The position numbers were made by a program, and so were the translations under genes. A stretch of 64,000 nt of DNA. Origin: an uncultured Candidatus Binatia bacterium. Its GTDB lineage: Bacteria > Desulfobacterota > Binatia > UBA9968 > JAJDTQ01. Positions 967 through 13,775 of this stretch are shown piece after piece (the first letter of the stretch is position 1; the number at the start of each line of letters is the position of its first letter). Location of the stretch: assembly GCA_965213675.1 (NCBI GenBank), contig OZ243916.1, forward strand, positions 2,528,001 through 2,592,000, in the 5' to 3' direction. The notes below the pieces were generated by a model. It was not told the origin of the DNA. It made no database searches and worked only from the letters and a program-made list of their open reading frames with translations.

Positions 967-2202
967 ATGACCTTGGCCACCCACCCCCTGGATCCGGAGA
1001 AACAGCCCGCGCTTGTGCGCATGGACTCGTATGCAGAGTGGCGCGAACGCGAAGGCGCACCGCTCGTGGGCGGGGTCTTCATCGAGGACATGAAGGAGGT
1101 GGAGGTGGGTCCGTGGCCGCGCAAGGGGGACGGCGTCAAGGGCGCCCTGTGCTACCTAGACGGCGACAACGGCGCCGACGAGCACATCGTCGAGTTGCCA
1201 CCCGGGGGCTACACCGCGCCGTTGCGGCACATGTACACCGAGGCCATCTACGTGGTGTCGGGCCACGGCTCCTGTTCGGTATGGCGCGAGGGCGGGGAGA
1301 AACAGACCTTCGAGTGGGGGCCGGGCAGCTACTTCGTGCCCCCAACCAACGCCTGGCACCAGTTCTTCAACGCCAGCCTGTCGCAGCCGGCGCGCTGGTT
1401 CTCCGTCACCGACCTGCCGCAACTCTTTCGGCAGTGGAACAGCGAGCACTTCATCTTCAACAATGGCTACGACTTCGACGACCGCTACCAGGGCGAACCC
1501 GACTACTTCACGGCAGAGGCCAAGCTCTACAAGGGGAGGGTGTGGGAGACCAACTTCATCCCGGACATCCGCAAGCTGCCCCTCTACGAGTGGAAAAGCC
1601 GGGGCGGCGGCGGCACCAACGCCTTCATGGTCATGGGCTCCGGACTGATGGAGTCCCACGTGTCCCGCTTCGAGTCCGGCTACTACAAGAAATCCCACCG
1701 CCACGGCCCCGGAGCGCATCTGTACATCATCGAAGGCGAGGGCTACGTGCTCGCCCAGCGCGGCAACGAGGAGCGCATTCGCTGCGACTGGAAGGAAGGC
1801 AGCCTCTACCTCTCCGGCGCTGGGCAGGGCCTGTGGCTGCACCAGCACTTCAACGTGGGTGAGACGCCGGCAACCTATCTGGTGATGAACCAGGGACTGT
1901 CGCGCAAGTACGCGGTCAACCGCTGGCAGGCGCAGGAATCCACCGTGCTCCGCACCGGCGAGGTCAGCGGGAAGAAGGGCGGCTACCAAGTGGAGTATGA
2001 GGATGAGGACCCGGAGATCCACCAGATCTTCGAGGCAGAGCTGGCCAGGCGCGGCATCACCTGCCGGATGAAGAACATGGTGCCGTGGTGCACCGGCGCG
2101 GCCGGCGCCGAGGCCGTCAAGGTCCTGTTCCCGGACGAGCACGGCAACCTGCCGGGCGAGCAGGGCAACCTCCCGGACGCGGAAGGAAGCTTCATCGACT
2201 GA
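967..2202 (+). CDS. Bicupin metalloprotein (gentisate 1,2-dioxygenase-like fold)
   Basis: Two cupin motif sets: LRHMYTEAIYVVSGHG...WHQFFN and KSHRHGPGAHLYIIEGEG...LHQHFN. GAAGGAG RBS precedes ATG 967. Confidence 0.75.
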   Translation: MTLATHPLDPEKQPALVRMDSYAEWREREGAPLVGGVFIEDMKEVEVGPWPRKGDGVKGALCYLDGDNGADEHIVELPPGGYTAPLRHMYTEAIYVVSGHGSCSVWREGGEKQTFEWGPGSYFVPPTNAWHQFFNASLSQPARWFSVTDLPQLFRQWNSEHFIFNNGYDFDDRYQGEPDYFTAEAKLYKGRVWETNFIPDIRKLPLYEWKSRGGGGTNAFMVMGSGLMESHVSRFESGYYKKSHRHGPGAHLYIIEGEGYVLAQRGNEERIRCDWKEGSLYLSGAGQGLWLHQHFNVGETPATYLVMNQGLSRKYAVNRWQAQESTVLRTGEVSGKKGGYQVEYEDEDPEIHQIFEAELARRGITCRMKNMVPWCTGAAGAEAVKVLFPDEHGNLPGEQGNLPDAEGSFID

Positions 2203-2268
2203 CGACTGCCGGCGACGCCGTACTGCGCCGGCGCCGGAGCAACCCCACAAAGAGAACGAAGACCCGCA

Positions 2269-5004
2269 ATGAACGATCAACATTCCATGAACCCTTGTGG
2301 ACGGGGCCTCAGGCTGGTGCGACCCGTCATGGCGCTCGCGCTGCTGGCCGTCCTCACACTCGCCCTCCACGGTCCGGGCCACGCACAGAGCGGCGATCCG
2401 CCGGCGGATCCCACGCCGGACAACGAAATGGCGCAACGCTGGTGGAACACCCTGAGCCCGGAACAGATGGTCGCCGCCCTGTTCGGCGACAGCGCCACCG
2501 CGGAGCAGGCCACCGCCGCCAGGAACCCTTACGCCGGCCTGGACATGGCGACCAAGGGCTTGGTCAACGACGCCGCTTCCGAGATCTACGGCAACGGCGG
2601 CTTTCAAAGCGTCGGGGCGTGGTGGGAGTCCCTGGACTGCCGCCTCATGCGCGTGGCCGCAGGCGACGGCAACACCGCCGACCCGGAAAGCCCCTACTGC
2701 GCCCATTACCCCGGATCCGGACAGGATCGTTTGCTGGCGACCGAGCAGAAGGATCATGTGGACACGGTGGGCATGGCTCTCCTCGATTTGTCCGAGCCGG
2801 GTGTCTATCCGCCGGACATCACTCCGGCCAGACTTTGGTGGAACACCCTCAACGCCGATCAGATGGTGGCCGCGCTTCACGGCGACGGCGCCACTCCGGA
2901 ACAACGCGACGCGGCTCAACGCATGTACGCGGAGCTGGATCCCGAGACCAAGAAGCTCGTTCACGACGCGGCCGCCTCCATCTACGGCACCGGCCGTTTC
3001 AGCAGCGTCGGCGCGTGGTGGGAGTCCCTGGACTGCCGCCTCATGCGCGTCGCCACGGGTGACGGCAACACCGCGGATTCCTCCAGCCCCTACTGCGCCC
3101 ACTACCCCGGCTCCGGGTTGTCGCCGCTTCTGGGGACCGCCGAGAAAAACCACGTGGACAAGGTCGGCATGGCCCTCCTCGATCGCTCCGACCCCGGCGT
3201 GTTCCCGCCTGACAGCGACCGCGCCAAGGCTTGGTGGAATGCACTCAATGGCGATCAGATGGCGGCCGCCCTCTTCGGCGACGCCCCCACGACAGACCAG
3301 AATGCCGCGGCCCGCAACCCATACGCCGACCTCGACCCCGAGACCAAGAAGCTCGTCCACGACGCCACCGCCTCGATCTACGGCGCCGGCGGTTTCGACA
3401 GCGTCGGGGCGTGGTGGGAATCCCTGAACTGCCCCCTCATGCGCGTCGCCGCGGGTGACGGCAACACTGCGGATTCCTCCAGCCCCTACTGCGCCCACTA
3501 CCCCGGCTCCGGGTTGTCGCCGCTTCTGGGGACCGCCGAGAAAAACCACGTGGACAAGGTCGGCATGGCCCTCCTCGGCCGCTCCGACCCCGGCGTGTTC
3601 CCGCCGGTGGACGAGCGTCTCGGCCAGGCTGCCCGCGTCCTCCTGCCGGTGGTCACGCGCGCGATCCTGTCGAGCGCCGTGGACACGGTGGGCGACCGGG
3701 CTTACGCGCGTCTTGCGGGACCTGCCGCGGACGCGCCGGGTTTGAGCCTGGCGGGGAGCGCGAATCTGCCGGAGGCCTTGGCGCTCCATGGCAAGGCCAT
3801 GAACGACGGCGCGGCGGACCTGACGCGCCTGCTGGCGCGATCCTCCTTTGTGCTGCCGCTGAACGGCTCCGGCGATCCTGACGGGTTCAAGCTTTGGGGG
3901 AGCGGTGATTATCGCAACCTGTCCGGCGCGGCCAACCGCATCGACTGGGAGGGAAACGTCGTGAGCGCCCATGTGGGGACGGACGTCATGCTGCGGCGCA
4001 ACCTGCTGGCGGGCCTCGCCGTTTCTTTTTCCCAGGGCGCCCTCGACTACACGGATCGCATCGGCGGCGACGCGCGGGCGGGCGAGTACGAAACCGACCT
4101 CATCAGCCTCAATCCCTACGCGGGCTGGGTGCTGCGTTCCGGCATCCGGATCTGGGCGATGGCCGGACACGGCTGGGGTCGGGTTCGGCTCAACCACGAG
4201 GACTCGGACGAGGAACACTCCAGCGACATGACCCAGTGGTCGGGAGCGTTGGGGGTCCGCGGCAACCTCTATTCCAGCGGCGATGGCGCCACCGGCGGCG
4301 GGACGGTTCTGGACCTCAAGGGAGAAGGCTCGTTGGGACGGGGGGAGATTCACGGCTCCGCCAACATGGAAGAACTCACCACCACCGTCAGCCGGCTGCG
4401 GCTGGCGCTGGAAGGAACCCACACTCGACTGATTGGGACCGGTAACGTGCTGACCCCGTCGCTGGCGCTGGGCGTCCTCGCGGACGGCGGGTCCGGGCAG
4501 ACCGGCGCCGGGCTGGAGGTCGGCGGTGGCGTGAAGCTCACACAGACGTCTCTCGGTCTCACCGTGGAGGCGCGCGGACGAACGCTGCTGGCCCACGGCG
4601 AAGACGTGGAGGAATGGAGCGCCGGGGGCGCGCTCCATGTCGATCCCGGCCTGACCGGACAAGGCTGGTCCGTGAGCGTCGCGCCGTCGTGGGGCGTGAC
4701 ACCCAAAGGCCCCGGCGATCTCTGGCAACGCGGTCTGGTGGATGGGACCGGCGACCACTCGATGGATACCGCCATGCGCCTGGCGGGCGAACTGGGCTAT
4801 GGTCTCCACGCTTACGACGGGCGCGGCCTTGTGACGCCCTATGCCGGTTTCCTGCTATCCGGTCACGGTACGCGAGAGTACCGGGCGGGCGCGCGCGTGC
4901 GCGTGAAACCGTCCCTGGCCGTGGCGCTCCAAGGGACCCAGCGAAGGCAGACGAACGCATCGGTCGAGCACGGCGTCACTGTGCAGGCCTCTATTCGCTG
5001 GTAG
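2269..5004 (+). CDS. Autotransporter (type Va) with a passenger of three 132-aa Trp/Cys repeats
   Basis: Signal peptide ending HGPGHA-Q, three tandem repeats, then a C-terminal beta-barrel-like region (LWGSGDYRNLSG, AHVGTD, NPYAGW, TPYAGF) ending in an aromatic residue (IRW). Confidence 0.75.
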   Translation: MNDQHSMNPCGRGLRLVRPVMALALLAVLTLALHGPGHAQSGDPPADPTPDNEMAQRWWNTLSPEQMVAALFGDSATAEQATAARNPYAGLDMATKGLVNDAASEIYGNGGFQSVGAWWESLDCRLMRVAAGDGNTADPESPYCAHYPGSGQDRLLATEQKDHVDTVGMALLDLSEPGVYPPDITPARLWWNTLNADQMVAALHGDGATPEQRDAAQRMYAELDPETKKLVHDAAASIYGTGRFSSVGAWWESLDCRLMRVATGDGNTADSSSPYCAHYPGSGLSPLLGTAEKNHVDKVGMALLDRSDPGVFPPDSDRAKAWWNALNGDQMAAALFGDAPTTDQNAAARNPYADLDPETKKLVHDATASIYGAGGFDSVGAWWESLNCPLMRVAAGDGNTADSSSPYCAHYPGSGLSPLLGTAEKNHVDKVGMALLGRSDPGVFPPVDERLGQAARVLLPVVTRAILSSAVDTVGDRAYARLAGPAADAPGLSLAGSANLPEALALHGKAMNDGAADLTRLLARSSFVLPLNGSGDPDGFKLWGSGDYRNLSGAANRIDWEGNVVSAHVGTDVMLRRNLLAGLAVSFSQGALDYTDRIGGDARAGEYETDLISLNPYAGWVLRSGIRIWAMAGHGWGRVRLNHEDSDEEHSSDMTQWSGALGVRGNLYSSGDGATGGGTVLDLKGEGSLGRGEIHGSANMEELTTTVSRLRLALEGTHTRLIGTGNVLTPSLALGVLADGGSGQTGAGLEVGGGVKLTQTSLGLTVEARGRTLLAHGEDVEEWSAGGALHVDPGLTGQGWSVSVAPSWGVTPKGPGDLWQRGLVDGTGDHSMDTAMRLAGELGYGLHAYDGRGLVTPYAGFLLSGHGTREYRAGARVRVKPSLAVALQGTQRRQTNASVEHGVTVQASIRW
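2428..3606 (+). repeat. Intragenic tandem repeat, 3 units with a 396-bp (132-aa) period
   Basis: GACGGCAACAC occurs at 2665, 3061 and 3457 (396-bp spacing). The 3' halves of units 2 and 3 are nearly identical at DNA level. Confidence 0.95.
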
Positions 5005-5050
5005 CATCGCCAGCAGTCCACGCCGTCGTAGAATCGACAAGCGTTTCTCC

Positions 5051-5120
5051 CTTCGTCCTGAGCCCTTCGACAGGCTCAGGACAGGCTTCGTGTAGTGGAG
5101 CGGAACGAAGTCGAAGGACG
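5051..5120. repeat. REP-like palindromic element, family A (GTCCTGAG / CTTCGAC...CTCAGGAC / GAAGTCGAAGGAC)
   Basis: Nested palindrome GTCCTGAGCCCTTCGACAGGCTCAGGAC. Related copies at about 11652-11753, 27326-27370 and a partial one at 30423. Confidence 0.7.
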
Positions 5121-5132
5121 CAGGTTCAACCC

Positions 5133-6641
5133 ATGCACGACATCGCGGGCGAACACGATCACGAAGGGGCGGCGGAGCAGGAGGAAGATCATCCTCTATG
5201 GAAGCTCGACACCGTTACGCTGACCAGCGTCGGCATCGACGTGGGCACGGCCACGTCCCAGATTCTGTTTTCGCGCCTGGTGCTCCGGCGGTTGGGGCGG
5301 GAGCTGTCCAGCCGCTTCGTGGTCACCGAGCGAAAGACGCTCTATCTCTCGCCGATCCGCTTCACTCCCTACACCGCCAATCGTGAGCGCATCGACGACG
5401 CGGCATTGAGCCGGCTCGTGGACGAGGCCTACGACGACGCGGGCCTCAAACCGAATGACGTGAACACCGGCGCCATCATCCTGACCGGCGAGGCGATCCG
5501 GCGGGACAACGCGCGTGCCATCGCCGACCTCTTCGCCGATCAGCGCGGCGACTTCGTCTGCGCCACCGCCGGCCACAACTTCGAAGCCCTGCTGGCGGCG
5601 CATGGCTCCGGCGCCGTGGCCTTTTCCGCGGAACAGGACTGCCGCGTTCTCAACATCGACATCGGCGGCGGCACCACCAAGCTGGCTCTCGCCGAAGGCG
5701 GACGGGTGCTCGGCACCGCGGCCTTCCACGTGGGCGGACGGCTGCTGGCCACCGACCGCGACGGCGCGATTACCGTGCTGGAACACGGCGGCAGGACTCT
5801 GGCAAGCCACGTGGGACTCGACTGGAACGTGGGAGACCAGGCGCACGCGGACGACATCGAGCGCTTGGCCGATCACATGGCCGAGGTGGTGTTGACCTTG
5901 GCCGGCGGGCGCAAGGTCGGCCCCGAGCTGGAGCCACTGTGGCTGACGCCCCCCTTGGACGGAGTCCGCGATGGCGACGCCGTGGTCTTCTCCGGCGGGG
6001 TGGGCGAATACGTCTACGGAAACGAGCGCGAGTCCCACGGCGACATCGGCGCGCCGCTGGGCCAGGCTCTGCGGCGGCGCATCGACGCCGGCGCGCTGCC
6101 TGGCAGCCTGGTGAGCGCGCGCGAATGCATCCGCGCCACGGTGATGGGCGCCGCGCAGCACACCGTGCAGGTATCCGGCAACACCATCCATCGCTCCGGC
6201 GACGACCTGTTGCCGCGCAAGAACCTTCAGGTGCTGCGTCCGCCCGTCGACATGGAAGGCGACATCGACCCGGACGGCATGGCGCGAACCATCCGAAGCC
6301 ACTTCCAGACGTTCGACCTGGTGGAGGGCAATGCCGAGGCGGCTCTCGTATTCGCGTGGCAGGGACCGCCCGCGGCCCATCGCATCGCCGCGTTCTGCCG
6401 CGGGCTCCTGGAGGGCCTGCCGCAAACCGTGGCGCGGAAACGGCCCATCTACCTCGTGTTCGACCACGACATGGCCGGCTTGGTGGGCGCCATCCTCAAA
6501 CAGGACTTCGGGCTCGCGGGCGACGTGCTGGCCCTGGACGGCATCACGCTCCGCGATTTCGACTTCATCGACCTGGGCCAGGTGCTGCAGCCGTCCGGCA
6601 CGGTGCCCGTGACCATCAAGTCACTGGTGTTCCAGTTTTAG
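5133..6641 (+). CDS. EutA-like ASKHA-fold ATPase (ethanolamine ammonia-lyase reactivase family)
   Basis: Motifs SVGIDVGTATSQ, TGAIILTGEA, FVCATAG...AAHGSGA, NIDIGGGTTK and C-terminal VPVTIKSLVF. The upstream extension in the ORF track is read-through over the autotransporter gene. Confidence 0.8.
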   Translation: MHDIAGEHDHEGAAEQEEDHPLWKLDTVTLTSVGIDVGTATSQILFSRLVLRRLGRELSSRFVVTERKTLYLSPIRFTPYTANRERIDDAALSRLVDEAYDDAGLKPNDVNTGAIILTGEAIRRDNARAIADLFADQRGDFVCATAGHNFEALLAAHGSGAVAFSAEQDCRVLNIDIGGGTTKLALAEGGRVLGTAAFHVGGRLLATDRDGAITVLEHGGRTLASHVGLDWNVGDQAHADDIERLADHMAEVVLTLAGGRKVGPELEPLWLTPPLDGVRDGDAVVFSGGVGEYVYGNERESHGDIGAPLGQALRRRIDAGALPGSLVSARECIRATVMGAAQHTVQVSGNTIHRSGDDLLPRKNLQVLRPPVDMEGDIDPDGMARTIRSHFQTFDLVEGNAEAALVFAWQGPPAAHRIAAFCRGLLEGLPQTVARKRPIYLVFDHDMAGLVGAILKQDFGLAGDVLALDGITLRDFDFIDLGQVLQPSGTVPVTIKSLVFQF

Positions 6642-6691
6642 GAGCCTGTCGGAGTAGGGGTGATCGGCTCCTCGCCCCAACGGAGGATGCC

Positions 6692-7456
6692 ATGGCAGGA
6701 ATTCTTCTGGACAAGACGGGCGGCGTGGCGTCGGTGGTCCTCGACCGTCCGCCCCTGAACGTGCTCAATCTCACGTTGCTACGCGAACTGCGACAGGTTC
6801 TGGACAAGGTGGACCGGGACGACGGCCTGGATCTCGTGGAGATCCGCGGCGCGGGTGAACGCGCGTTCTCGGCCGGCGTGGATGTGAAGGATCACACCCG
6901 GACGCAAGTCCCGGAGATGCTCGACCTCGTGCACGGGGTCATTCGGAAGCTGATGAGCCTGCGGCAGCCCACCATCGCGGTGGTGGACGGCGTCTGCCTG
7001 GGCGGAGGCTGCGAGCTGGCGTCGTCCTGCGATCTGGTGCTCGCTTCCGAGGACAGCTCGTTCGCCACGCCCGAGATCACCGTGGGCTGTTTCCCGCCGG
7101 TGGCGCTGGCTCGCTTCTCCTCGCAGATCGGCTACCACCGGGCCGCCGAGATGATCCTCACCGGCCGCCGGCTTTCCGCCCGCGAAGCCGCGGCCATCGG
7201 GCTCGTGAACCGTGTGGCGCCGCGCCATCAACTCGGCGCAGCGCTGGAAACCCTCCGGGGCGAACTGCTCGACAAGAGCCGCGCGGTACTGCGCATCACC
7301 CTGAGAGGCCTGCGGGAGATCGGCCTCAAGGAATTGTCGGCCGCCCTCGACCGCTCCGAGGAAATCTACCTCAAGGAACTGCTGGAAACTGAAGACGTCG
7401 AGGAGGGCGTCCAGGCATTCCTGGAGAAGCGCATGCCCCGGTGGCTGCACCGGTAG
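6692..7456 (+). CDS. Enoyl-CoA hydratase/crotonase (resembles the dienoyl-CoA hydratase Dch)
   Basis: Motifs RPPLNVLN, AFSAGVDVKDH, CLGGGCELA and PEITVGCFPP. GGAGG RBS before ATG 6692. Confidence 0.8.
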   Translation: MAGILLDKTGGVASVVLDRPPLNVLNLTLLRELRQVLDKVDRDDGLDLVEIRGAGERAFSAGVDVKDHTRTQVPEMLDLVHGVIRKLMSLRQPTIAVVDGVCLGGGCELASSCDLVLASEDSSFATPEITVGCFPPVALARFSSQIGYHRAAEMILTGRRLSAREAAAIGLVNRVAPRHQLGAALETLRGELLDKSRAVLRITLRGLREIGLKELSAALDRSEEIYLKELLETEDVEEGVQAFLEKRMPRWLHR

Positions 7457-7633: not shown

Positions 7634-8617
7634 TCAGGCGGGTTGGCTGTGCAAGGTCCGATGCACGGCTTCCACGATCCGCTCCTTGTCCGGGACGAAG
7701 AATTTCTCCAACGGCGGCGCGCATGGGACCGGCGCGTTGGGGGCGGCGACCCGCAGAATCGGGCTGTCGAGGTAGTAAAGGGCCTGTTCCTGAACACGGG
7801 CGGCCACTTCCGCCCCCACCCCGCCTTGCTCCACGGCTTCATGCACCACCACGAGGCGCGAGGTCTTCCGCACCGACGCCACGAGGGTGTCGACGTCCAG
7901 AGGCGCGAGGCTGCGGAGGTCGATGACCTCAACGGCGACTCCCTCGCCCGCCAGGGCGTCGGCCGCATCCAGGGCCGGCCCCACCATTCTGGAAACCGCG
8001 GCCACGGTCACGTCGGCACCGGCGCGAAGCACCGCGGCCTGGTCCATGCCAAGACCGCTTCCACCCTGGGGCGCCTCGGCCCGGGTGGAGTAGAGGGCCC
8101 GGTGCTCCACGAACAGCACCGGGTTGTCGTCGCGGATGGCGTGGCGCATGAGGCTCTCGGCGTCGGCCGGATTCGACGGCATTACCACCTTCAAGCCGGG
8201 GACGTGCAGGAACCAGGACTCCAGGCTCTGGGAATGATGCGCGCCCATATTGCCCTGGACGCCGCACTGCACGCGCACCGTCAGCGGCACCTTGAGTTGC
8301 CCGCCGGACATGTAATGGAGCTTGGCCGCGTGGTTGACGAGCTGGTCCATGGCCAAAGTGATGAAGTCCACGAACATGATCTCCACCACCGGGCGCAGCC
8401 CCGAAAGCGCGGCGCCGATGGCCAACCCCATGACCGTGCCCTCGCTGATGGGGGTGTTCACCACCCGGTGCGCGCCCAACTCCTCGGCGATGCCCTGGGT
8501 GACCCCGAAGGGCCCGCCGAGCGCCACGTCCTCCCCGAAGACGTACACCGACGGGTCATCCCGCATCTCCGCCAGAAGTCCCGAACGAATGGCTTCCAGG
8601 TAGCTCGATTCCGGCAT
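7634..8617 (-). CDS. 2-oxoacid/acetoin dehydrogenase E1 beta subunit
   Basis: Motifs FGEDV, NTPISE, RPVVEIMFVDF, GAHHSQSLE and EVIDLRSLAPLD. Confidence 0.9.
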   Translation of the reverse strand: MPESSYLEAIRSGLLAEMRDDPSVYVFGEDVALGGPFGVTQGIAEELGAHRVVNTPISEGTVMGLAIGAALSGLRPVVEIMFVDFITLAMDQLVNHAAKLHYMSGGQLKVPLTVRVQCGVQGNMGAHHSQSLESWFLHVPGLKVVMPSNPADAESLMRHAIRDDNPVLFVEHRALYSTRAEAPQGGSGLGMDQAAVLRAGADVTVAAVSRMVGPALDAADALAGEGVAVEVIDLRSLAPLDVDTLVASVRKTSRLVVVHEAVEQGGVGAEVAARVQEQALYYLDSPILRVAAPNAPVPCAPPLEKFFVPDKERIVEAVHRTLHSQPA

Positions 8618-8646
8618 GTTCACCTCACGGACGGGCTTGCGCCGCC

Positions 8647-9645
8647 TCACGCGCACACTTGCGTCGCGGCCTCCTCGGGCTCGGGCCAGGGAGACGCCAA
8701 CGCGAACTCCGCCGCCTCCTCCGCCAGAGCGCGCGCGTCCTGCTCCGCCTTCTCGAAGTCCTCGGCGGACGCGGCCCGGCGCCGCTTCAGCACCCGCGTG
8801 AAGCGCGCAATGGGGTCCTTCTTCTTCCAGTCGGCCAACTGCGACAATTCCCGGTACTTGCCGGGGTCGCCCTCATAGTGACCGCGGAGGCGGTAGGTGA
8901 GACATTCGACGAATGTCGGCCCCTTGCCAGCGCGGGCGTTGTCCACGGCCCGGCCCATGGCCTTGCGTACCGCCAGGATATCGTTGCCGTCCACGGTGGC
9001 GCCGGGGATGCCGTAGGTGCCCGCGTGCTGCGCCAGCCGCTCAACCCTGGTGTGGGCAGAGAGCGGCGTGAACTCGGCGTAGCCGTTGTTCTCGCACACG
9101 AAGATCACCGGAAGCCGCCACAGGCTGGCGATGTTCAGAGACTCATGGAAGGGGCCGGTCTGCCCCGCGCCGTCGCCAAAGAACACCACCGCCACCCGCC
9201 CGGCGCCCTTCTCCCGTGCCGCGAACGCCGCCCCCAGCGCCAGGGGCACCGTGCCGCCCACCACGCCGCTGGCGGTGACGAAGCCGGTCTCCGCGGCCAC
9301 CACGTGCATGGACCCGCCCTTGCCGCGGCAATAGCCGTTGGCGCGACCCGCCAACTCAGCCATGAGCCGGCTCACGTCCGCGCCCTTGGCGATGGCGTGT
9401 CCGTGGGAGCGGTGTCCACCGTAGACCATGTCATCGGTGTCGAGCAGCCCGCACACGCCCACCGCCACAGCCTCCTGCCCGATGCCGAGGTGCAACAGCC
9501 CGACGATCTCCCGCGCCGCGTAGAGCGCCGACACCTTCTCCTCGAAGGCGCGAATCACCCACATACGCCGGAGCAGCGACAGCAGGTCGCCACTGTCGTC
9601 CCCGCGGGTTGCCTGCCTGGTTCTCCCCCGCTTCGTTACCTTCAT
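8647..9645 (-). CDS. 2-oxoacid/acetoin dehydrogenase E1 alpha subunit (TPP-dependent)
   Basis: Motifs HLGIGQEA, HRSHGH, GKGGSMH, the TPP motif FFGDGA...ENN, and TYRLRGHYEGD. Confidence 0.9.
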   Translation of the reverse strand: MKVTKRGRTRQATRGDDSGDLLSLLRRMWVIRAFEEKVSALYAAREIVGLLHLGIGQEAVAVGVCGLLDTDDMVYGGHRSHGHAIAKGADVSRLMAELAGRANGYCRGKGGSMHVVAAETGFVTASGVVGGTVPLALGAAFAAREKGAGRVAVVFFGDGAGQTGPFHESLNIASLWRLPVIFVCENNGYAEFTPLSAHTRVERLAQHAGTYGIPGATVDGNDILAVRKAMGRAVDNARAGKGPTFVECLTYRLRGHYEGDPGKYRELSQLADWKKKDPIARFTRVLKRRRAASAEDFEKAEQDARALAEEAAEFALASPWPEPEEAATQVCA

Positions 9646-9848: not shown

Positions 9849-11405
9849 TCAACTGCCCAACGAGACTGTCGGCCCGTCTGCCGCCAAGCGGCGAAACCGC
9901 GCCCGGTCGACCTTGAATGCGTGGGCCTCGGTGGCGGGCCACTGATAGAAGGCGTCCGGCACCTTGTAGCCCGGCAGGGTCTGGCGCAGCCACGCCGCCA
10001 GCGCCTCGGCATCGGGACCGACCTCGCGCAGCTGCACGAACGCGACGCAGCGCTGGCCGAACTCCTCGTCGGGAATGGGCACCACCACCGCCTGGTCGAC
10101 GCCGTCGTGATCGGTCAGAACGCGCTCGATCTCCTCGGGATGAATGGTCTCACCCCCGGAAAAGAAGCGGTTGTCGCGCCGCCCGATGACCGTCAGGTAC
10201 CCGTCCTCGCCGACCCTGCCGAGATCGCCGGTGGCGAACCAGCCGTCGCCTGTCAGCGGACGGCGCAGCTTGCCGCCATCCACGTAACCCATGAACAGGG
10301 TCTCTCCGGCCAACTGGATCTCCCCCTCTTCGCCGATGCGCAGCCGGCGGTGCGGCAACAGCTTCCCCGACGTCAGCCGCTGGGCCGTGGTGGAGCCCGG
10401 TCCCGTCGTGGCCACCTGCGACGCCATCTCGGTACAGCCGTAGCTCGCGAACACCGGCAGGCCGCGGGCGGCGGCGCGCTCCAAGAGTTTCAGCGGCACC
10501 GGGCTGCCGCCCAGGATAATGTAGCGCAACGCGGGGTAGCGCACGGACTCCGGCTGCCGCAACAGCCGGTGCAGTTGCGTCACCACCACCGACAGGTGCG
10601 TGACCTCGTACCGGCTCAGCACCGCGTCGAGTGTCTCCCCCCGGTCGGGCATCACCACCGTGGAGCCCGCCAGCAGGGACCGAAACAGGATGCCGAGCCC
10701 GCCCACGTGATACAGCGGCAAGTCCAGCAGCCAGCGATCACCGGGCTGGAGCGGCAGGTTCGTGTTGGAACCGGCGGCGTTGTAGTAGTGATTGCCGTAG
10801 GAGTGCAGCACCGCCTTGGGCGCGCCGGTGCTGCCGGACGTGAAAACGATGGTCGCGGGGCGGTCCAGCGGCATGGCGCGGTCCCGGTTCCGGCCGCCGG
10901 GCCGAACCGAAGCCGCGTCCGCATGGAGGCCTTCGCCGCTGTGGCCACCACCGGCTTCCTGCCCGTCGCCGTCCGTCAGGCTCGGCAGTTCGCCGCTCTC
11001 GATGACTCGGACATCCCCGTTCAGGACAGGCCGCCCGTCACCGCCGCCCGCCAGTCGCGCGCCCGCCGGGGCTTCCCCTGCGGATGTCTGCACGACCAGC
11101 CAGCGACAATTCACACGGCCCAGAAGGTCCGCCACCGCCCGCTCCGGAAGCCGCGTGTTCATGGGACAGCACACCGCCCCCAGGCGCAGGATCGCCAGCA
11201 GCCACACGAGGTAGTCCGGGCTGTTGGGAGCGCAAACGGCGATGCGGTCGCCGGGGTTGCATCCCGCCCGCTCCAACGCCGCCGTCACCCCGGTCACGCG
11301 CTGGTGAAACTCCGCGTAGGAGACAACCCGTGCGCCGCTGACCACCGCGGGCCGGTGGCCGCAGCGCTCGGCGGCTTCTTCGAGGGGGCAGCGAATCTCA
11401 GTCAT
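9849..11405 (-). CDS. menE: o-succinylbenzoate--CoA ligase
   Basis: AMP-binding motif FTSGSTGAPKAV, plus LPLYHVGG, SYGCTEMASQV, TGDLG and GRRDNRFFSGGETIHPEEIE. Lies downstream of menB and menA. Confidence 0.85.
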   Translation of the reverse strand: MTEIRCPLEEAAERCGHRPAVVSGARVVSYAEFHQRVTGVTAALERAGCNPGDRIAVCAPNSPDYLVWLLAILRLGAVCCPMNTRLPERAVADLLGRVNCRWLVVQTSAGEAPAGARLAGGGDGRPVLNGDVRVIESGELPSLTDGDGQEAGGGHSGEGLHADAASVRPGGRNRDRAMPLDRPATIVFTSGSTGAPKAVLHSYGNHYYNAAGSNTNLPLQPGDRWLLDLPLYHVGGLGILFRSLLAGSTVVMPDRGETLDAVLSRYEVTHLSVVVTQLHRLLRQPESVRYPALRYIILGGSPVPLKLLERAAARGLPVFASYGCTEMASQVATTGPGSTTAQRLTSGKLLPHRRLRIGEEGEIQLAGETLFMGYVDGGKLRRPLTGDGWFATGDLGRVGEDGYLTVIGRRDNRFFSGGETIHPEEIERVLTDHDGVDQAVVVPIPDEEFGQRCVAFVQLREVGPDAEALAAWLRQTLPGYKVPDAFYQWPATEAHAFKVDRARFRRLAADGPTVSLGS

Positions 11406-11467
11406 GCCGTATCTCAATCAGCCTCGATGGGTCGATGCGGTGCGCAATGGGTGATTACCTGGGAGCT

Positions 11468-11642
11468 TGCGCCGCAGAAACTCGCGAATGCGAAAATTCG
11501 CTACCGCCGTCCCTTCGGCCGCTCGATTGAGGAGAATATCATGTCATATTTGACGAAATCGAGCGGCCGAAGGATTTGACGAGATCAAGCGGCCGAAGGG
11601 ACGGCTGAAAGCGAATTTGCAGCCGTGAATTCCTGCGGCGCA
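11468..11642. repeat. About 175-bp imperfect inverted repeat (MITE-like/structured element)
   Basis: TGCGCCGCAG...AAATTCGCT...GCCGTCCCTTCGGCCGCT pairs with AGCGGCCGAAGGGACGGC...AGCGAATTT...CTGCGGCGCA. The AGCGGCCGAAGG arm is internally duplicated. Confidence 0.7.
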
Positions 11643-11781
11643 GGCGCCTGACCGGTCCTGAGCTTGCCGGAGGGATCGGGACCCACGGAAAGAGAATCGG
11701 CGGAACCCTGAACCTGACACGGTTTGTCCTGAGCGTAGCGAAGTCGAAGGACCTGGAATCAAATCCGGCGGACTCCTGGAT

Positions 11782-12708
11782 TCAGAGCATCCAGCCGATG
11801 GAGAACACGGCGCTGTACAGCAGAAGCAGCCGGGCGGTGTCGGCGAGGACGGGGTTCAATTGCGGGCCTTCGGCCGCGTAGAGGCGGCGGAACGCCGGCA
11901 GGGCCGCGGCGATCACGGCGACGGTGGCGACGGACCAGGGGCGCCGGCCCGAGGCGAGGTAGAGAAGCAGCGGCAGCAGGCACGCCACGACCACGGCCGC
12001 GATGTATTCGAGGCGGGCGAAGCCCGGACCGAAGCGCACCGCCAGCGTGCGCTTGCCGGTGCGGCGGTCTTCATCGGCGTCGCGGAGGTTGTTGACCGCG
12101 AGGATGGCGACCGACAGAAGCCCCGGCGCCAGGCCCGCGACGATGACGGTGGCGTTCACGCTCAGCGCCTGGACGTAATAGGTGCCGGCCACCGCCACGG
12201 GGCCAAAGAAGATCAGCACAAAGAAGTCGCCGAGGCCCAGGTAGCCCAGAGGGCGGGGTCCACCGGTGTAAAGCATCCCGGCCGTCACCGACAGGACGCC
12301 GATGAGGGCGGCGGGCCATCCGCCGCGCCACACAAGATAGAGACCGCACAGCAAGGTCAGCGCCAGCACCACGAGGATGCCGCGCTTCATCATGCCCGGG
12401 GACACGAGGCCGGCCTGGGTCACTCGAAGCGGCCCCTGCCGGGCCTCGGTGTCGGCGCCCTTTTCGAAATCGAAGAGGTCGTTGGCGAAGTTGGTGGCCA
12501 CCTGGATCAGCACGGAACAGGCCAGCGCCGCCAGCGCCGCGGGGGCGTGGAATCCGCCGTCGCCGTAGGCCATGGCCACACCGATCAGGACAGGGGCGAT
12601 GGAGGCCCAGAGAGTCTTGGGCCTGGCCGCCAGGATCCATACCGTGACGGCGCCTGGCGGTGCCGGCGCGTGTCCGCCACCGCCGGTTGGTCCAGCGGCC
12701 TGCCTCAC
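11782..12708 (-). CDS. menA: 1,4-dihydroxy-2-naphthoate polyprenyltransferase
   Basis: Motifs AARPKTL, NFANDLFDFEKGAD, YTGGPRPLGYLGLGD and NNLRDADEDRRTGKRTLAVRFG. Start codon uncertain. Confidence 0.9.
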   Translation of the reverse strand: MRQAAGPTGGGGHAPAPPGAVTVWILAARPKTLWASIAPVLIGVAMAYGDGGFHAPAALAALACSVLIQVATNFANDLFDFEKGADTEARQGPLRVTQAGLVSPGMMKRGILVVLALTLLCGLYLVWRGGWPAALIGVLSVTAGMLYTGGPRPLGYLGLGDFFVLIFFGPVAVAGTYYVQALSVNATVIVAGLAPGLLSVAILAVNNLRDADEDRRTGKRTLAVRFGPGFARLEYIAAVVVACLLPLLLYLASGRRPWSVATVAVIAAALPAFRRLYAAEGPQLNPVLADTARLLLLYSAVFSIGWML

Positions 12709-12831
12709 GGAACCCTTCGACCCTGTGCCTGGATGGTGCCTGTAACCATGCGACAGCCTGTGGCGTTGGGCGGGCTCGTACCTCAGGGCTTGTTCCGGGG
12801 CATCACTCTGACACCGGGGCTTGCGGCCGTT

Positions 12832-13653
12832 TCAGGGACGCTTGGGGAACTTGGAGAAGTCGGGCTGGCGTTTCTCCACGAAGGCGTTGCGTCCCTCCTG
12901 CCCCTCTTCGGTCATGTAGAAGAGCATGGTGGCGTTGCCCGCCAGCTCCTGCAGGCCGGCCTGGCCGTCGCAATCGGCATTGAACGCGGCCTTGAGGCAG
13001 CGGATGGCGATGGGCGACTTGGCGAGGATCTCGCGGCACCACTGGACCGTTTCCTCCTCCAGCCGCTCGTACGGCACCACCGCGTTCACCAGCCCCATGT
13101 CCAGGGCCTCCTGGGCGTTGTACTGCCGGCACAGGTACCAAATTTCACGCGCCTTCTTCTGGCCCACGATGCGCGCCAGGTAAGTGGCGCCGTAGCCGCC
13201 ATCAAAAGAGCCCACGCGCGGCCCGGTCTGCCCGAAGATGGCGTTGTCCGCGGCGATGGTGAGGTCGCACATGACGTGCAGCACGTGGCCGCCGCCCACG
13301 GCGTAACCCGCCACCATGGCGATGACGGGCATGGGGCAACTGCGCATCTGGCGCTGGAAATCCAGCACGTTCAACCGGTGCACCCCGGCCCCGTCCTTGT
13401 AGCCGGAATCACCGCGCACCTTCTGGTCGCCGCCGGAGCAGAACGCTTCCCGGCCCTCGCCGGTGAGGATCACCACGCCGATGGCCGGGTCGTTGCGCGC
13501 CTCGTCGAGCGCCTGGATCATCTCCTCCACCGTCAGCGGCCTGAAGGCGTTGCGCACCTCCGGGCGGTTGATGGTGATCTTCGCGATGCCGTCGGTCTTG
13601 TGGTACTTGATGTCGGTGAACTGTCCCGCTTCGGTCCATTCGATTACAGCCAT
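12832..13653 (-). CDS. menB: 1,4-dihydroxy-2-naphthoyl-CoA synthase
   Basis: Motifs [46 protein letters not shown] and [20 protein letters not shown]. Confidence 0.97.
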
Positions 13654-13775
13654 GGTCAAACCTCGATTCGACGAGTCTCGATTCGATCATTTCGACGAGA
13701 CTTTTCCGAGCGGCTTACCATATCCTGCGGGGTTTTTCTGTAGCGGGGTCGAGCGATTTCACCACGACCCGGTTG

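Follow-up and report, generated by a model that had tools for sequence, protein, structure and literature searches.

What does a EutA-family ATPase do in a genome that has no ethanolamine ammonia-lyase? The question is raised by a gene at positions 5133-6641 (+ strand) of a 64,000-nucleotide stretch of contig OZ243916.1 (assembly GCA_965213675.1) from an uncultured Candidatus Binatia bacterium. The whole stretch is referred to here as the window. The gene encodes a EutA-like ATPase of 502 amino acids (aa), and upstream of it on the same strand lies a gene for a two-barrel cupin (bicupin) of 411 aa (967-2202). Canonical EutA is described in PMC5821096 as carrying out ATP-dependent removal of damaged cofactor, cobalamin, from ethanolamine ammonia-lyase (EutBC). 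The original prediction, made from the window alone, proposed that the ATPase serves a different client, for example by metal loading of the cupin. It named two findings that would speak against this: eutBC elsewhere in the genome together with grouping of the protein with canonical EutA, or a cupin–EutA linkage that is not conserved in other genomes. On comparative grounds, the bicupin and the EutA-like ATPase are a cognate two-gene module that is conserved across phyla and independent of ethanolamine ammonia-lyase.

Ethanolamine ammonia-lyase was sought in the window and more widely. Profile searches gave no match to EutB or EutC in the window, as the original prediction had stated, or in the whole 4.53-Mb source assembly (97.7% complete, 8% contamination). 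EutB was found in none of the 41 genomes of the order, the source genome included. PF06277, the Pfam EutA family, is present in all 41 of these genomes, with 2 to 11 matches each. PF06277 matches in the control genomes of Caulobacter, Thermus, Deinococcus, and Bacillus were gone at an E value of 1e-20 or lower, and these genomes were not counted as carriers. A EutB profile made from five canonical sequences matched none of the 84 EutA-like loci described below and all six of the canonical loci.

The EutA-like protein spans positions 2-475 of the 475-position PF06277 profile (395 bits against a cut-off of 27, E 6.7e-118) and is a member of that family. It falls below the cut-off of all four NCBIfam EutA equivalog models. 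The best of these, NF007992, gives 329 bits against a cut-off of 598, and the others give 196-244 bits against 769-952. Its closest public relatives, at 84-87% identity, are from Candidatus Binatia metagenome-assembled genomes (MAGs). With EutA from enterobacteria, clostridia, Listeria, and haloarchaea, the protein shares 29-33% identity over about 95% of its length. The EutA-like profile gives scores above 480 bits for at least 150 clusters (50% identity level), and the six canonical EutA proteins score 313-398 bits against a smaller profile made from the four paralogues of the source genome. The canonical set consists of EutA from E. coli, C. difficile, Listeria, Cetobacterium, Brevibacillus, and one haloarchaeon, each adjoining eutB.

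A tree of 101 rows splits 95 EutA-like proteins, the window protein among them, from the six eutBC-linked EutA proteins with a Shimodaira–Hasegawa-like approximate likelihood ratio (SH-aLRT) support of 100, in a quick LG+G4 search in which the canonical rows were flagged as long branches. The window protein therefore does not group with canonical EutA. Because it scores below the NCBIfam cut-offs, is without eutBC, and lies outside the eutBC-linked group of the tree, it is by these tests a member of the Pfam EutA family that does not classify as the canonical ethanolamine ammonia-lyase reactivase.

The two groups share a nucleotide-binding core. There are 46 positions conserved in at least 95% of the 95 EutA-like proteins that are also identical in all six canonical EutA proteins. 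These include D36/G38, D176/G178-T181, and G288/G289, which are invariant over 91 sequences. The phosphate-1 (DxG), phosphate-2 (DxGGGT), and adenosine (GG) motifs of ASKHA proteins are thus present, together with a two-lobed RNase-H-like fold. Eight conserved positions are specific to the EutA-like clade, for example K183 (N in canonical EutA) and W409 (A or G in canonical EutA). A structural model of the window protein has an ASKHA fold with a predicted local distance difference test (pLDDT) score of 86.5 and low confidence at residues 1-12. The top Foldseek matches of this model are all ASKHA proteins, namely activators, kinases, Ppx/GppA, MreB, and EutJ. PDB sequence searches returned nothing close to either the EutA-like protein or the bicupin, and the structural relatives of both models are generic ones.

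The linkage between the two genes is repeated within the source genome. The assembly has four full-length EutA-family genes with 40-43% mutual identity, and three of them (the window gene, L007, and L008) are paired with a bicupin. At L007 and L008, a bicupin gene on the same strand directly precedes the EutA-like gene, and its product is 31-36% identical to the window bicupin. The gene that follows the pair differs in the three cases, being a crotonase, a PALP enzyme, and a molybdopterin hydroxylase subunit.

A gene-neighbourhood survey, of the kind that the original prediction had proposed, was carried out with an alignment of the paralogues and one genome per species. Of the 579 stretches that it matched, tblastn confirmed 538, and the 80 best loci were retained. 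Together with the window and the three other loci of the source genome, these form a set of 84 loci that is biased toward relatives of the query. Open reading frames in six frames were scored with profiles made from the source-genome paralogues and from the five canonical EutB sequences. The survey spans at least seven phyla, including Binatota, Chloroflexota, Verrucomicrobiota, Alpha-, Beta-, and Gammaproteobacteria, and Actinomycetota, as well as MAGs labelled 'delta', Myxococcota, or Thermodesulfobacteriota.

A bicupin scoring above 250 bits is present in 47 of the 84 loci. Counted by EutA-like gene, 28 of 94 have a bicupin on the same strand within 300 bp, 11 have a divergent bicupin within 1.2 kb, and for 14 a bicupin lies at some other place in the flank that was fetched. 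By comparison, the whole 4.53-Mb source assembly has only 11 full-length bicupin matches. Within the clade of the window protein, all ten rows (Binatia, Verrucomicrobiota, Chloroflexota, and 'delta' MAGs) have a same-strand bicupin upstream. Seven of these ten pairs are adjacent, and three (the window, L012, and L013) are split by a gene for an autotransporter-like protein. Outside the genus, the bicupin and EutA-like pair is the only conserved part of the locus. The linkage is therefore kept across phyla, and the order of cupin to EutA, found at two more places in the genome and in other phyla, lifts the co-orientation of the window genes above chance. Chance adjacency of cupin and EutA-like genes is negligible as an explanation.

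The two partners also diversified together. For 33 pairs, either adjacent on the same strand or split by an insert, the p-distance matrices of the ATPase and the bicupin correlate with r = 0.88, and none of 2000 Mantel permutations reached this value. Genome kinship contributes to this correlation, and paralogues within one genome are the informative cases. The nearest pair to L007 is that of the alphaproteobacterium Terripilifer for both proteins, and the nearest pair to L008 is an Acidocella pair, again for both. The window pair is nearest to other Binatia pairs. Because the partner distances mirror each other, the pairs diversified as units, and because the three pairs have matching nearest pairs for both proteins, the subfamilies are seen to travel together. 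Judged from these distances, each ATPase subfamily moves with its own bicupin subfamily, and the pair has been duplicated and inherited as a unit.

The window bicupin has Cupin_2 in two stretches (Pfam, E 3.3e-16), and its AlphaFold model (pLDDT 86.7) contains two beta-barrels. In the C-terminal barrel, all 63 bicupins compared share the invariant residues H244, H246, H292, H294, Y240, and K242, and 41 of them have H251. The N-terminal barrel is variable at its ligand positions, with H88 in 31 and H131 in 42 of the 63. The conserved signature of the family is Y-K-K-x-H-x-H ... W-F-H-Q-H-F-N. Orthologues in five loci of the same genus are 91-96% identical. The bicupin would be a metal-dependent enzyme, probably an oxygenase. 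Foldseek matches of the model are MncA, oxalate decarboxylase, vicilins, and gentisate dioxygenase, with a template modelling (TM) score of about 0.40-0.45 and identity of 10-17%. The window bicupin scores far below the cut-offs of the gentisate 1,2-dioxygenase model TIGR02272 (24 bits against 442.1) and the 5-aminosalicylate dioxygenase model NF049978 (30 bits against 650). No member of the family with a solved structure or a functional name was found in the PDB, among NCBI names, or in a protein atlas. Database names of its relatives are 'quercetin dioxygenase-like cupin', 'hypothetical', and 'cupin domain'.

Several further forms of the bicupin were recorded. One NCBI record (P0089) calls a partial bicupin of this family an 'ethanolamine ammonia lyase-activating protein'. 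The EutA-like gene next to it is the probable source of this name, which is an example of how the pair is misannotated. Tandem arrays of up to four bicupin copies lie upstream of one EutA-like gene (L078:2150-6926, L077:63-2797, L084:4671-6951). Bicupin–bicupin fusions occur as five database proteins of 723-830 aa (P0121-P0125). A search for longer proteins fusing a cupin with EutA gave six matches, five of which are such bicupin tandems. A fusion candidate, P0126 (900 aa, with PF06277), was rejected; it has long stretches rich in Arg and Ala and resembles neighbouring genes read through across a frameshift. Read-through between partners, checked by hand for a shared frame and the intervening stop, was unremarkable; about 13 of 28 adjacent pairs are in frame, against one third expected.

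Features suggestive of metal handling are found on both partners. The window EutA-like protein begins MHDIAGEHDHEGAAEQEEDHP, the His/acidic tract that the original prediction had quoted. The His/Asp/Glu-rich N-terminal extension occupies residues 1-26 (MHDIAGEHDHEG...EEDHPLW), encoded at 5133-5210 (+ strand). Over the 45 aa that precede the first ASKHA strand, at least three His are present in 80 of 94 EutA-like rows, H-x-H in 65, and an E-x-(H/N)-P-(L/M)-W-like motif in 61, one of these rows being partial and some including residues translated upstream of the true start. None of the three features occurs in the six canonical EutA proteins, all of which are without an N-terminal extension. One betaproteobacterial EutA-like protein also has a His-rich tail at the C-terminus. 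A gene for a NicO-type Ni/Co transporter is present in 9 of the 84 loci.

These results bear on the two parts of the proposed role differently. The cupin as a client is well supported by comparative genomics, since eutBC is absent, the ATPase belongs to a non-canonical clade, and the linkage is conserved and co-diversified. Metal loading gains support from the clade-wide His/Asp tract, the invariant His site of the cupin, and the NicO genes. In the explanation favoured here, the EutA-like protein would be a maturation or reactivation factor that treats its bicupin client in much the way that EutA treats EutBC. By binding and hydrolysing ATP, its ASKHA core would open the client bicupin, and the opened client would exchange a wrong, oxidised, or missing cofactor, which would be a metal ion instead of cobalamin. 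The bicupin would bind its metal in the C-terminal barrel, at the invariant His cluster, and the His/Asp-rich N-terminal tract would hold the metal or hand it over. That the EutA-like protein acts on the bicupin in this way, by analogy with EutA, to insert, exchange, or restore a metal is considered an evenly balanced proposition. More tentatively, a large branch of the EutA family may be unrelated to ethanolamine and B12 and may consist of ATP-driven metal-insertion or repair factors for cognate bicupin oxygenases and, in some operons, for a PhtD-like enzyme.

A number of observations weigh against this explanation. Physical contact between the EutA-like protein and the bicupin is itself an inference. 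By fold, the ASKHA protein is about as close to small-molecule kinases as to activator ATPases. In the fetched flanks, 28 of 94 EutA-like genes have neither a bicupin nor a PhtD-like gene; 12 of these 28 belong to the L006-type clade, and many others are on short contigs or in operons whose bicupin lies 5-7 kb downstream, at the limit of the fetched sequence. The L006 clade itself (12 rows, including one source-genome paralogue) never has a bicupin nearby. A further 13 EutA-like genes adjoin a different, PhtD-like protein of about 330 aa with an SsuA-like fold. The His tract is not universal, with at least three His in 72 of the 141 scorable among the 150 best representative clusters, and the L007 clade is without the tract while being paired with a bicupin. 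Of the bicupin matches in the source genome, nine are distinct on contig 1 and only three are paired, so most members of the bicupin family have no ATPase gene beside them. A distance of 2.9 kb separates the partners in the window, and a promoter-like site precedes the EutA-like gene. Lastly, all three cultured carriers tested outside Binatia have EutB.

Some of these exceptions can be described further. The L006 paralogue of the source genome (C1:211006-212424) has no cupin neighbour. Its clade is made up of Binatia and 'delta' MAGs, adjoins a divergent DUF4175 gene, and keeps the His/acidic tract; in eight loci the gene lies upstream of TPR and PYC_OADA/HMGL-like genes. The L006 type could be an unpaired general helper for orphan bicupins.

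The protein of about 330 aa has no Pfam match and a weak SsuA-family match, and resembles 4,5-dihydroxyphthalate decarboxylase. In 13 proteobacterial loci, which include L020, L024 (3822-4811), L028, L035, L042, L043, L045, L050, L052, L058, L059, and L076, its gene precedes the EutA-like gene by 57-118 bp. The operons contain a BenC-like reductase, a Rieske LigXa-like oxygenase, a class II aldolase/decarboxylase, an ABC transporter, IclR, and often NicO. Because these 13 genes adjoin the PhtD-like protein instead of a bicupin, the EutA-like clade may have clients of different kinds, with this protein as a second.

Six unpaired bicupins of the source genome (L097-L102) are on contig 1 at 2761185, 3762500, 1288869, 3245244, 1902387, and 1593304. 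Their neighbours are amidohydrolase_2, M24 peptidase/creatinase, PALP, glyoxalase, amidase, the alpha subunit of nitrile hydratase, a molybdenum cofactor (MoCo) hydroxylase, and E1 alpha/beta genes plus an acyl-CoA synthetase. The copy at 1902387, which is duplicated on contig 19, contains an in-frame TGA.

The promoter-like site in the window is located at 5007-5034. It is the sole exception in promoter and terminator counts that are otherwise near those of shuffled sequences, and is not evidence for a separate transcript.

The close adjacency and co-diversification of the two partners would suit obligate subunits of one enzyme equally well. The EutA-like protein could then be a catalytic subunit whose ASKHA part phosphorylates a substrate, with the cupin completing the reaction, as in ATP-dependent hydantoinase or acetone carboxylase. 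Intact ASKHA motifs agree with such a subunit, as does a weak Hydantoinase_A match in one paralogue (E 4.8e-4). It is nevertheless unlikely, given that the alignment to EutA is full-length and includes the C-terminal domain, with the 46 invariant positions held in common with a reactivase that acts on a protein. In the source genome, bicupins outnumber paired ATPases three to one, and some EutA-like genes adjoin another protein family. The His-rich tails would also be left unexplained.

In proteobacterial loci the pair is accompanied by a class II aldolase/decarboxylase, a beta-hydroxyacid dehydrogenase, and transporters typical of acid-sugar or aromatic-acid catabolism, and ROK sugar kinases are among the top Foldseek matches of the EutA-like protein. 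Both would fit a pathway in which the EutA-like protein is an ASKHA small-molecule kinase and the cupin an isomerase or dioxygenase on the same metabolite, without any action of one protein on the other. This is regarded as quite unlikely. The flanks vary by clade (crotonase, PALP enzyme, MoCo hydroxylase, ABC transporter) and the pair alone is constant, the paralogous pairs co-diversified one to one more strongly than neighbours in a pathway usually do, and a kinase has no use for a His/Asp tract.

It is highly improbable that the protein is a reactivase for an unrecognised cobalamin enzyme elsewhere, or for EutBC in trans, with the cupin's position incidental: a full-length EutA-family member, EutB elsewhere in the cultured carriers, and two B12-binding-domain genes in the source genome would accord with it, but the order has many EutA-family matches and no EutB, the B12-binding genes adjoin no EutA-like paralogue (the nearest is about 28 kb away), the EutB genes of the cultured carriers are on contigs other than those with EutA-family genes, and co-diversification with the bicupin would have no explanation.

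The open reading frames and domains agree with the original prediction in placing the bicupin, autotransporter, EutA-like, and crotonase genes all on the + strand. The last of these (6692-7456, 254 aa) encodes a generic crotonase of the enoyl-CoA hydratase family (ECH_1, E 1.3e-47). Its start codon, read from the sequence, is the ATG at 6692, with a GGAGGA ribosome-binding motif upstream. No equivalog cut-off is reached, and EchA19, the highest-scoring NCBIfam model, gives 165.6 bits where its cut-off is 400. The earlier label of a Dch-like hydratase is not supported, because the Dch model TIGR03189 gives 131.7 bits, below its cut-off of 292.5, with 13 other crotonase models scoring higher, and the enzyme is a generic enoyl-CoA hydratase. 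A crotonase gene follows the EutA-like gene in five of five loci of the same genus and in none of L014-L016 and L077. It is a neighbour within the genus only and lies outside the conserved module.

The gene between the partners (2269-5004, + strand) encodes an autotransporter-like protein of 911 aa. Scanned as a whole, the protein matched no Pfam or NCBIfam model. Its last 367 aa, scanned alone, match the beta-domain PF03797 with 32.1 bits (cut-off 26, E 1.3e-7), a match that covers only profile positions 12-123 of 255. The autotransporter (type Va) of the original prediction, taken as a C-terminal PF03797 beta-domain behind a secreted passenger, stands on this match of the C-terminal fragment. 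A signal-peptide-like N-terminus and a terminal Trp were read by eye. The passenger contains a 396-bp tandem repeat in 2.6 copies (2584-3607). The three repeats of about 132 aa (WWNTL...AWWESLDCRLMRVAAGDGNTAD...YCAHYPGSG) matched no family. The gene is present in three of six loci of the genus (the window, L012, and L013) and absent from L009-L011. It is about 60% identical among the three loci, and the flanking genes are 85-93% identical. The autotransporter gene is an insertion between the partners in this genus and not part of the conserved module.

Beyond the crotonase gene, the minus strand carries an E1 alpha/beta pair without an E2 or E3 gene nearby (7634-9645), MenE (9849-11417; 390 bits against an NCBIfam cut-off of 330), a UbiA-family prenyltransferase (11782-12708), and MenB (12832-13659; 519 bits against an NCBIfam cut-off of 380). 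The block from 9849 to 13659 is a menaquinone gene set beside the E1 alpha/beta pair. The minus-strand neighbours are thus largely a menaquinone cluster, with no obvious catabolic partner for the bicupin and EutA-like genes. The aromatic/heterocycle catabolic module suggested by the original prediction finds no support here, as the crotonase is restricted to the genus and is not Dch, and the adjacent AMP-binding gene is MenE.

A literature search, with subscription journals largely outside its scope, turned up no account of a EutA clade that is linked to cupins or independent of eutBC. EutA-family genes are annotated 'ethanolamine ammonia-lyase reactivating factor', which is misleading for many genomes, because the lineage studied here is without ethanolamine ammonia-lyase. 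Should maturation or repair of the bicupin be the task of the ATPase, the reactivase principle, so far one of cobalamin enzymes, would also apply to enzymes with a metal ion. The ASKHA fold would then join the metallochaperones. A practical rule would also follow, namely that the cognate partner should be co-expressed to obtain active enzymes of this uncharacterised bicupin family, which is expanded to nine copies in this uncultured Binatia genome, whose catabolic capacities are of environmental interest. Under the more tentative reading of a whole EutA branch devoted to metal insertion or repair, this would be the first metallochaperone or reactivase of its fold, and it could explain how cupins in the cytoplasm come by the right metal or recover it.

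Four sets of known systems resemble parts of this module. The bicupin shares the two-barrel cupin fold with MncA (2vqa), OxdC, and gentisate 1,2-dioxygenase (3bu7), with Foldseek E values of 1e-13 to 7e-17, and shares His-type metal motifs in a barrel. It differs from these in that the conserved His cluster of its family is in the C-terminal barrel only, and identity is 10-17%.

The activators HgdC and HadI and the BcrAD family include the top structural matches of the EutA-like protein (1hux, 4eht), and BcrAD_BadFG appears as weak Pfam matches in EutA-like proteins. These are also ATPases that act on a partner enzyme. They differ in having their own [4Fe-4S] cluster at the dimer interface, through which they inject electrons. 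The EutA-like protein is twice as long, with a EutA-specific C-terminal domain, and identity is 14-17%.

HypB, UreE/UreG, and CooC/CooJ are His-rich, nucleoside triphosphate-dependent metallochaperones of Ni/Co enzymes and are SIMIBI/G3E GTPases or small metal-binding proteins. The likeness lies in flexible His/Asp-rich tails, a nucleotide-hydrolysing core, genes beside the metalloenzyme that is matured, and an occasional linkage to a NicO-type transporter. The EutA-like protein differs in having an ASKHA fold, and its role with metal is a prediction from sequence.

The closest system is EutA itself (PF06277; PRK10719 models). The likeness consists of a family match over the full model and the 46 common positions, including the ASKHA nucleotide motifs, and by analogy it likely extends to an ATPase acting on a partner enzyme for cofactor exchange. 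In contrast to EutA, the clade of the window protein is separate, is never beside eutBC in 84 loci, carries an added His/Asp tract, and is paired with a bicupin.

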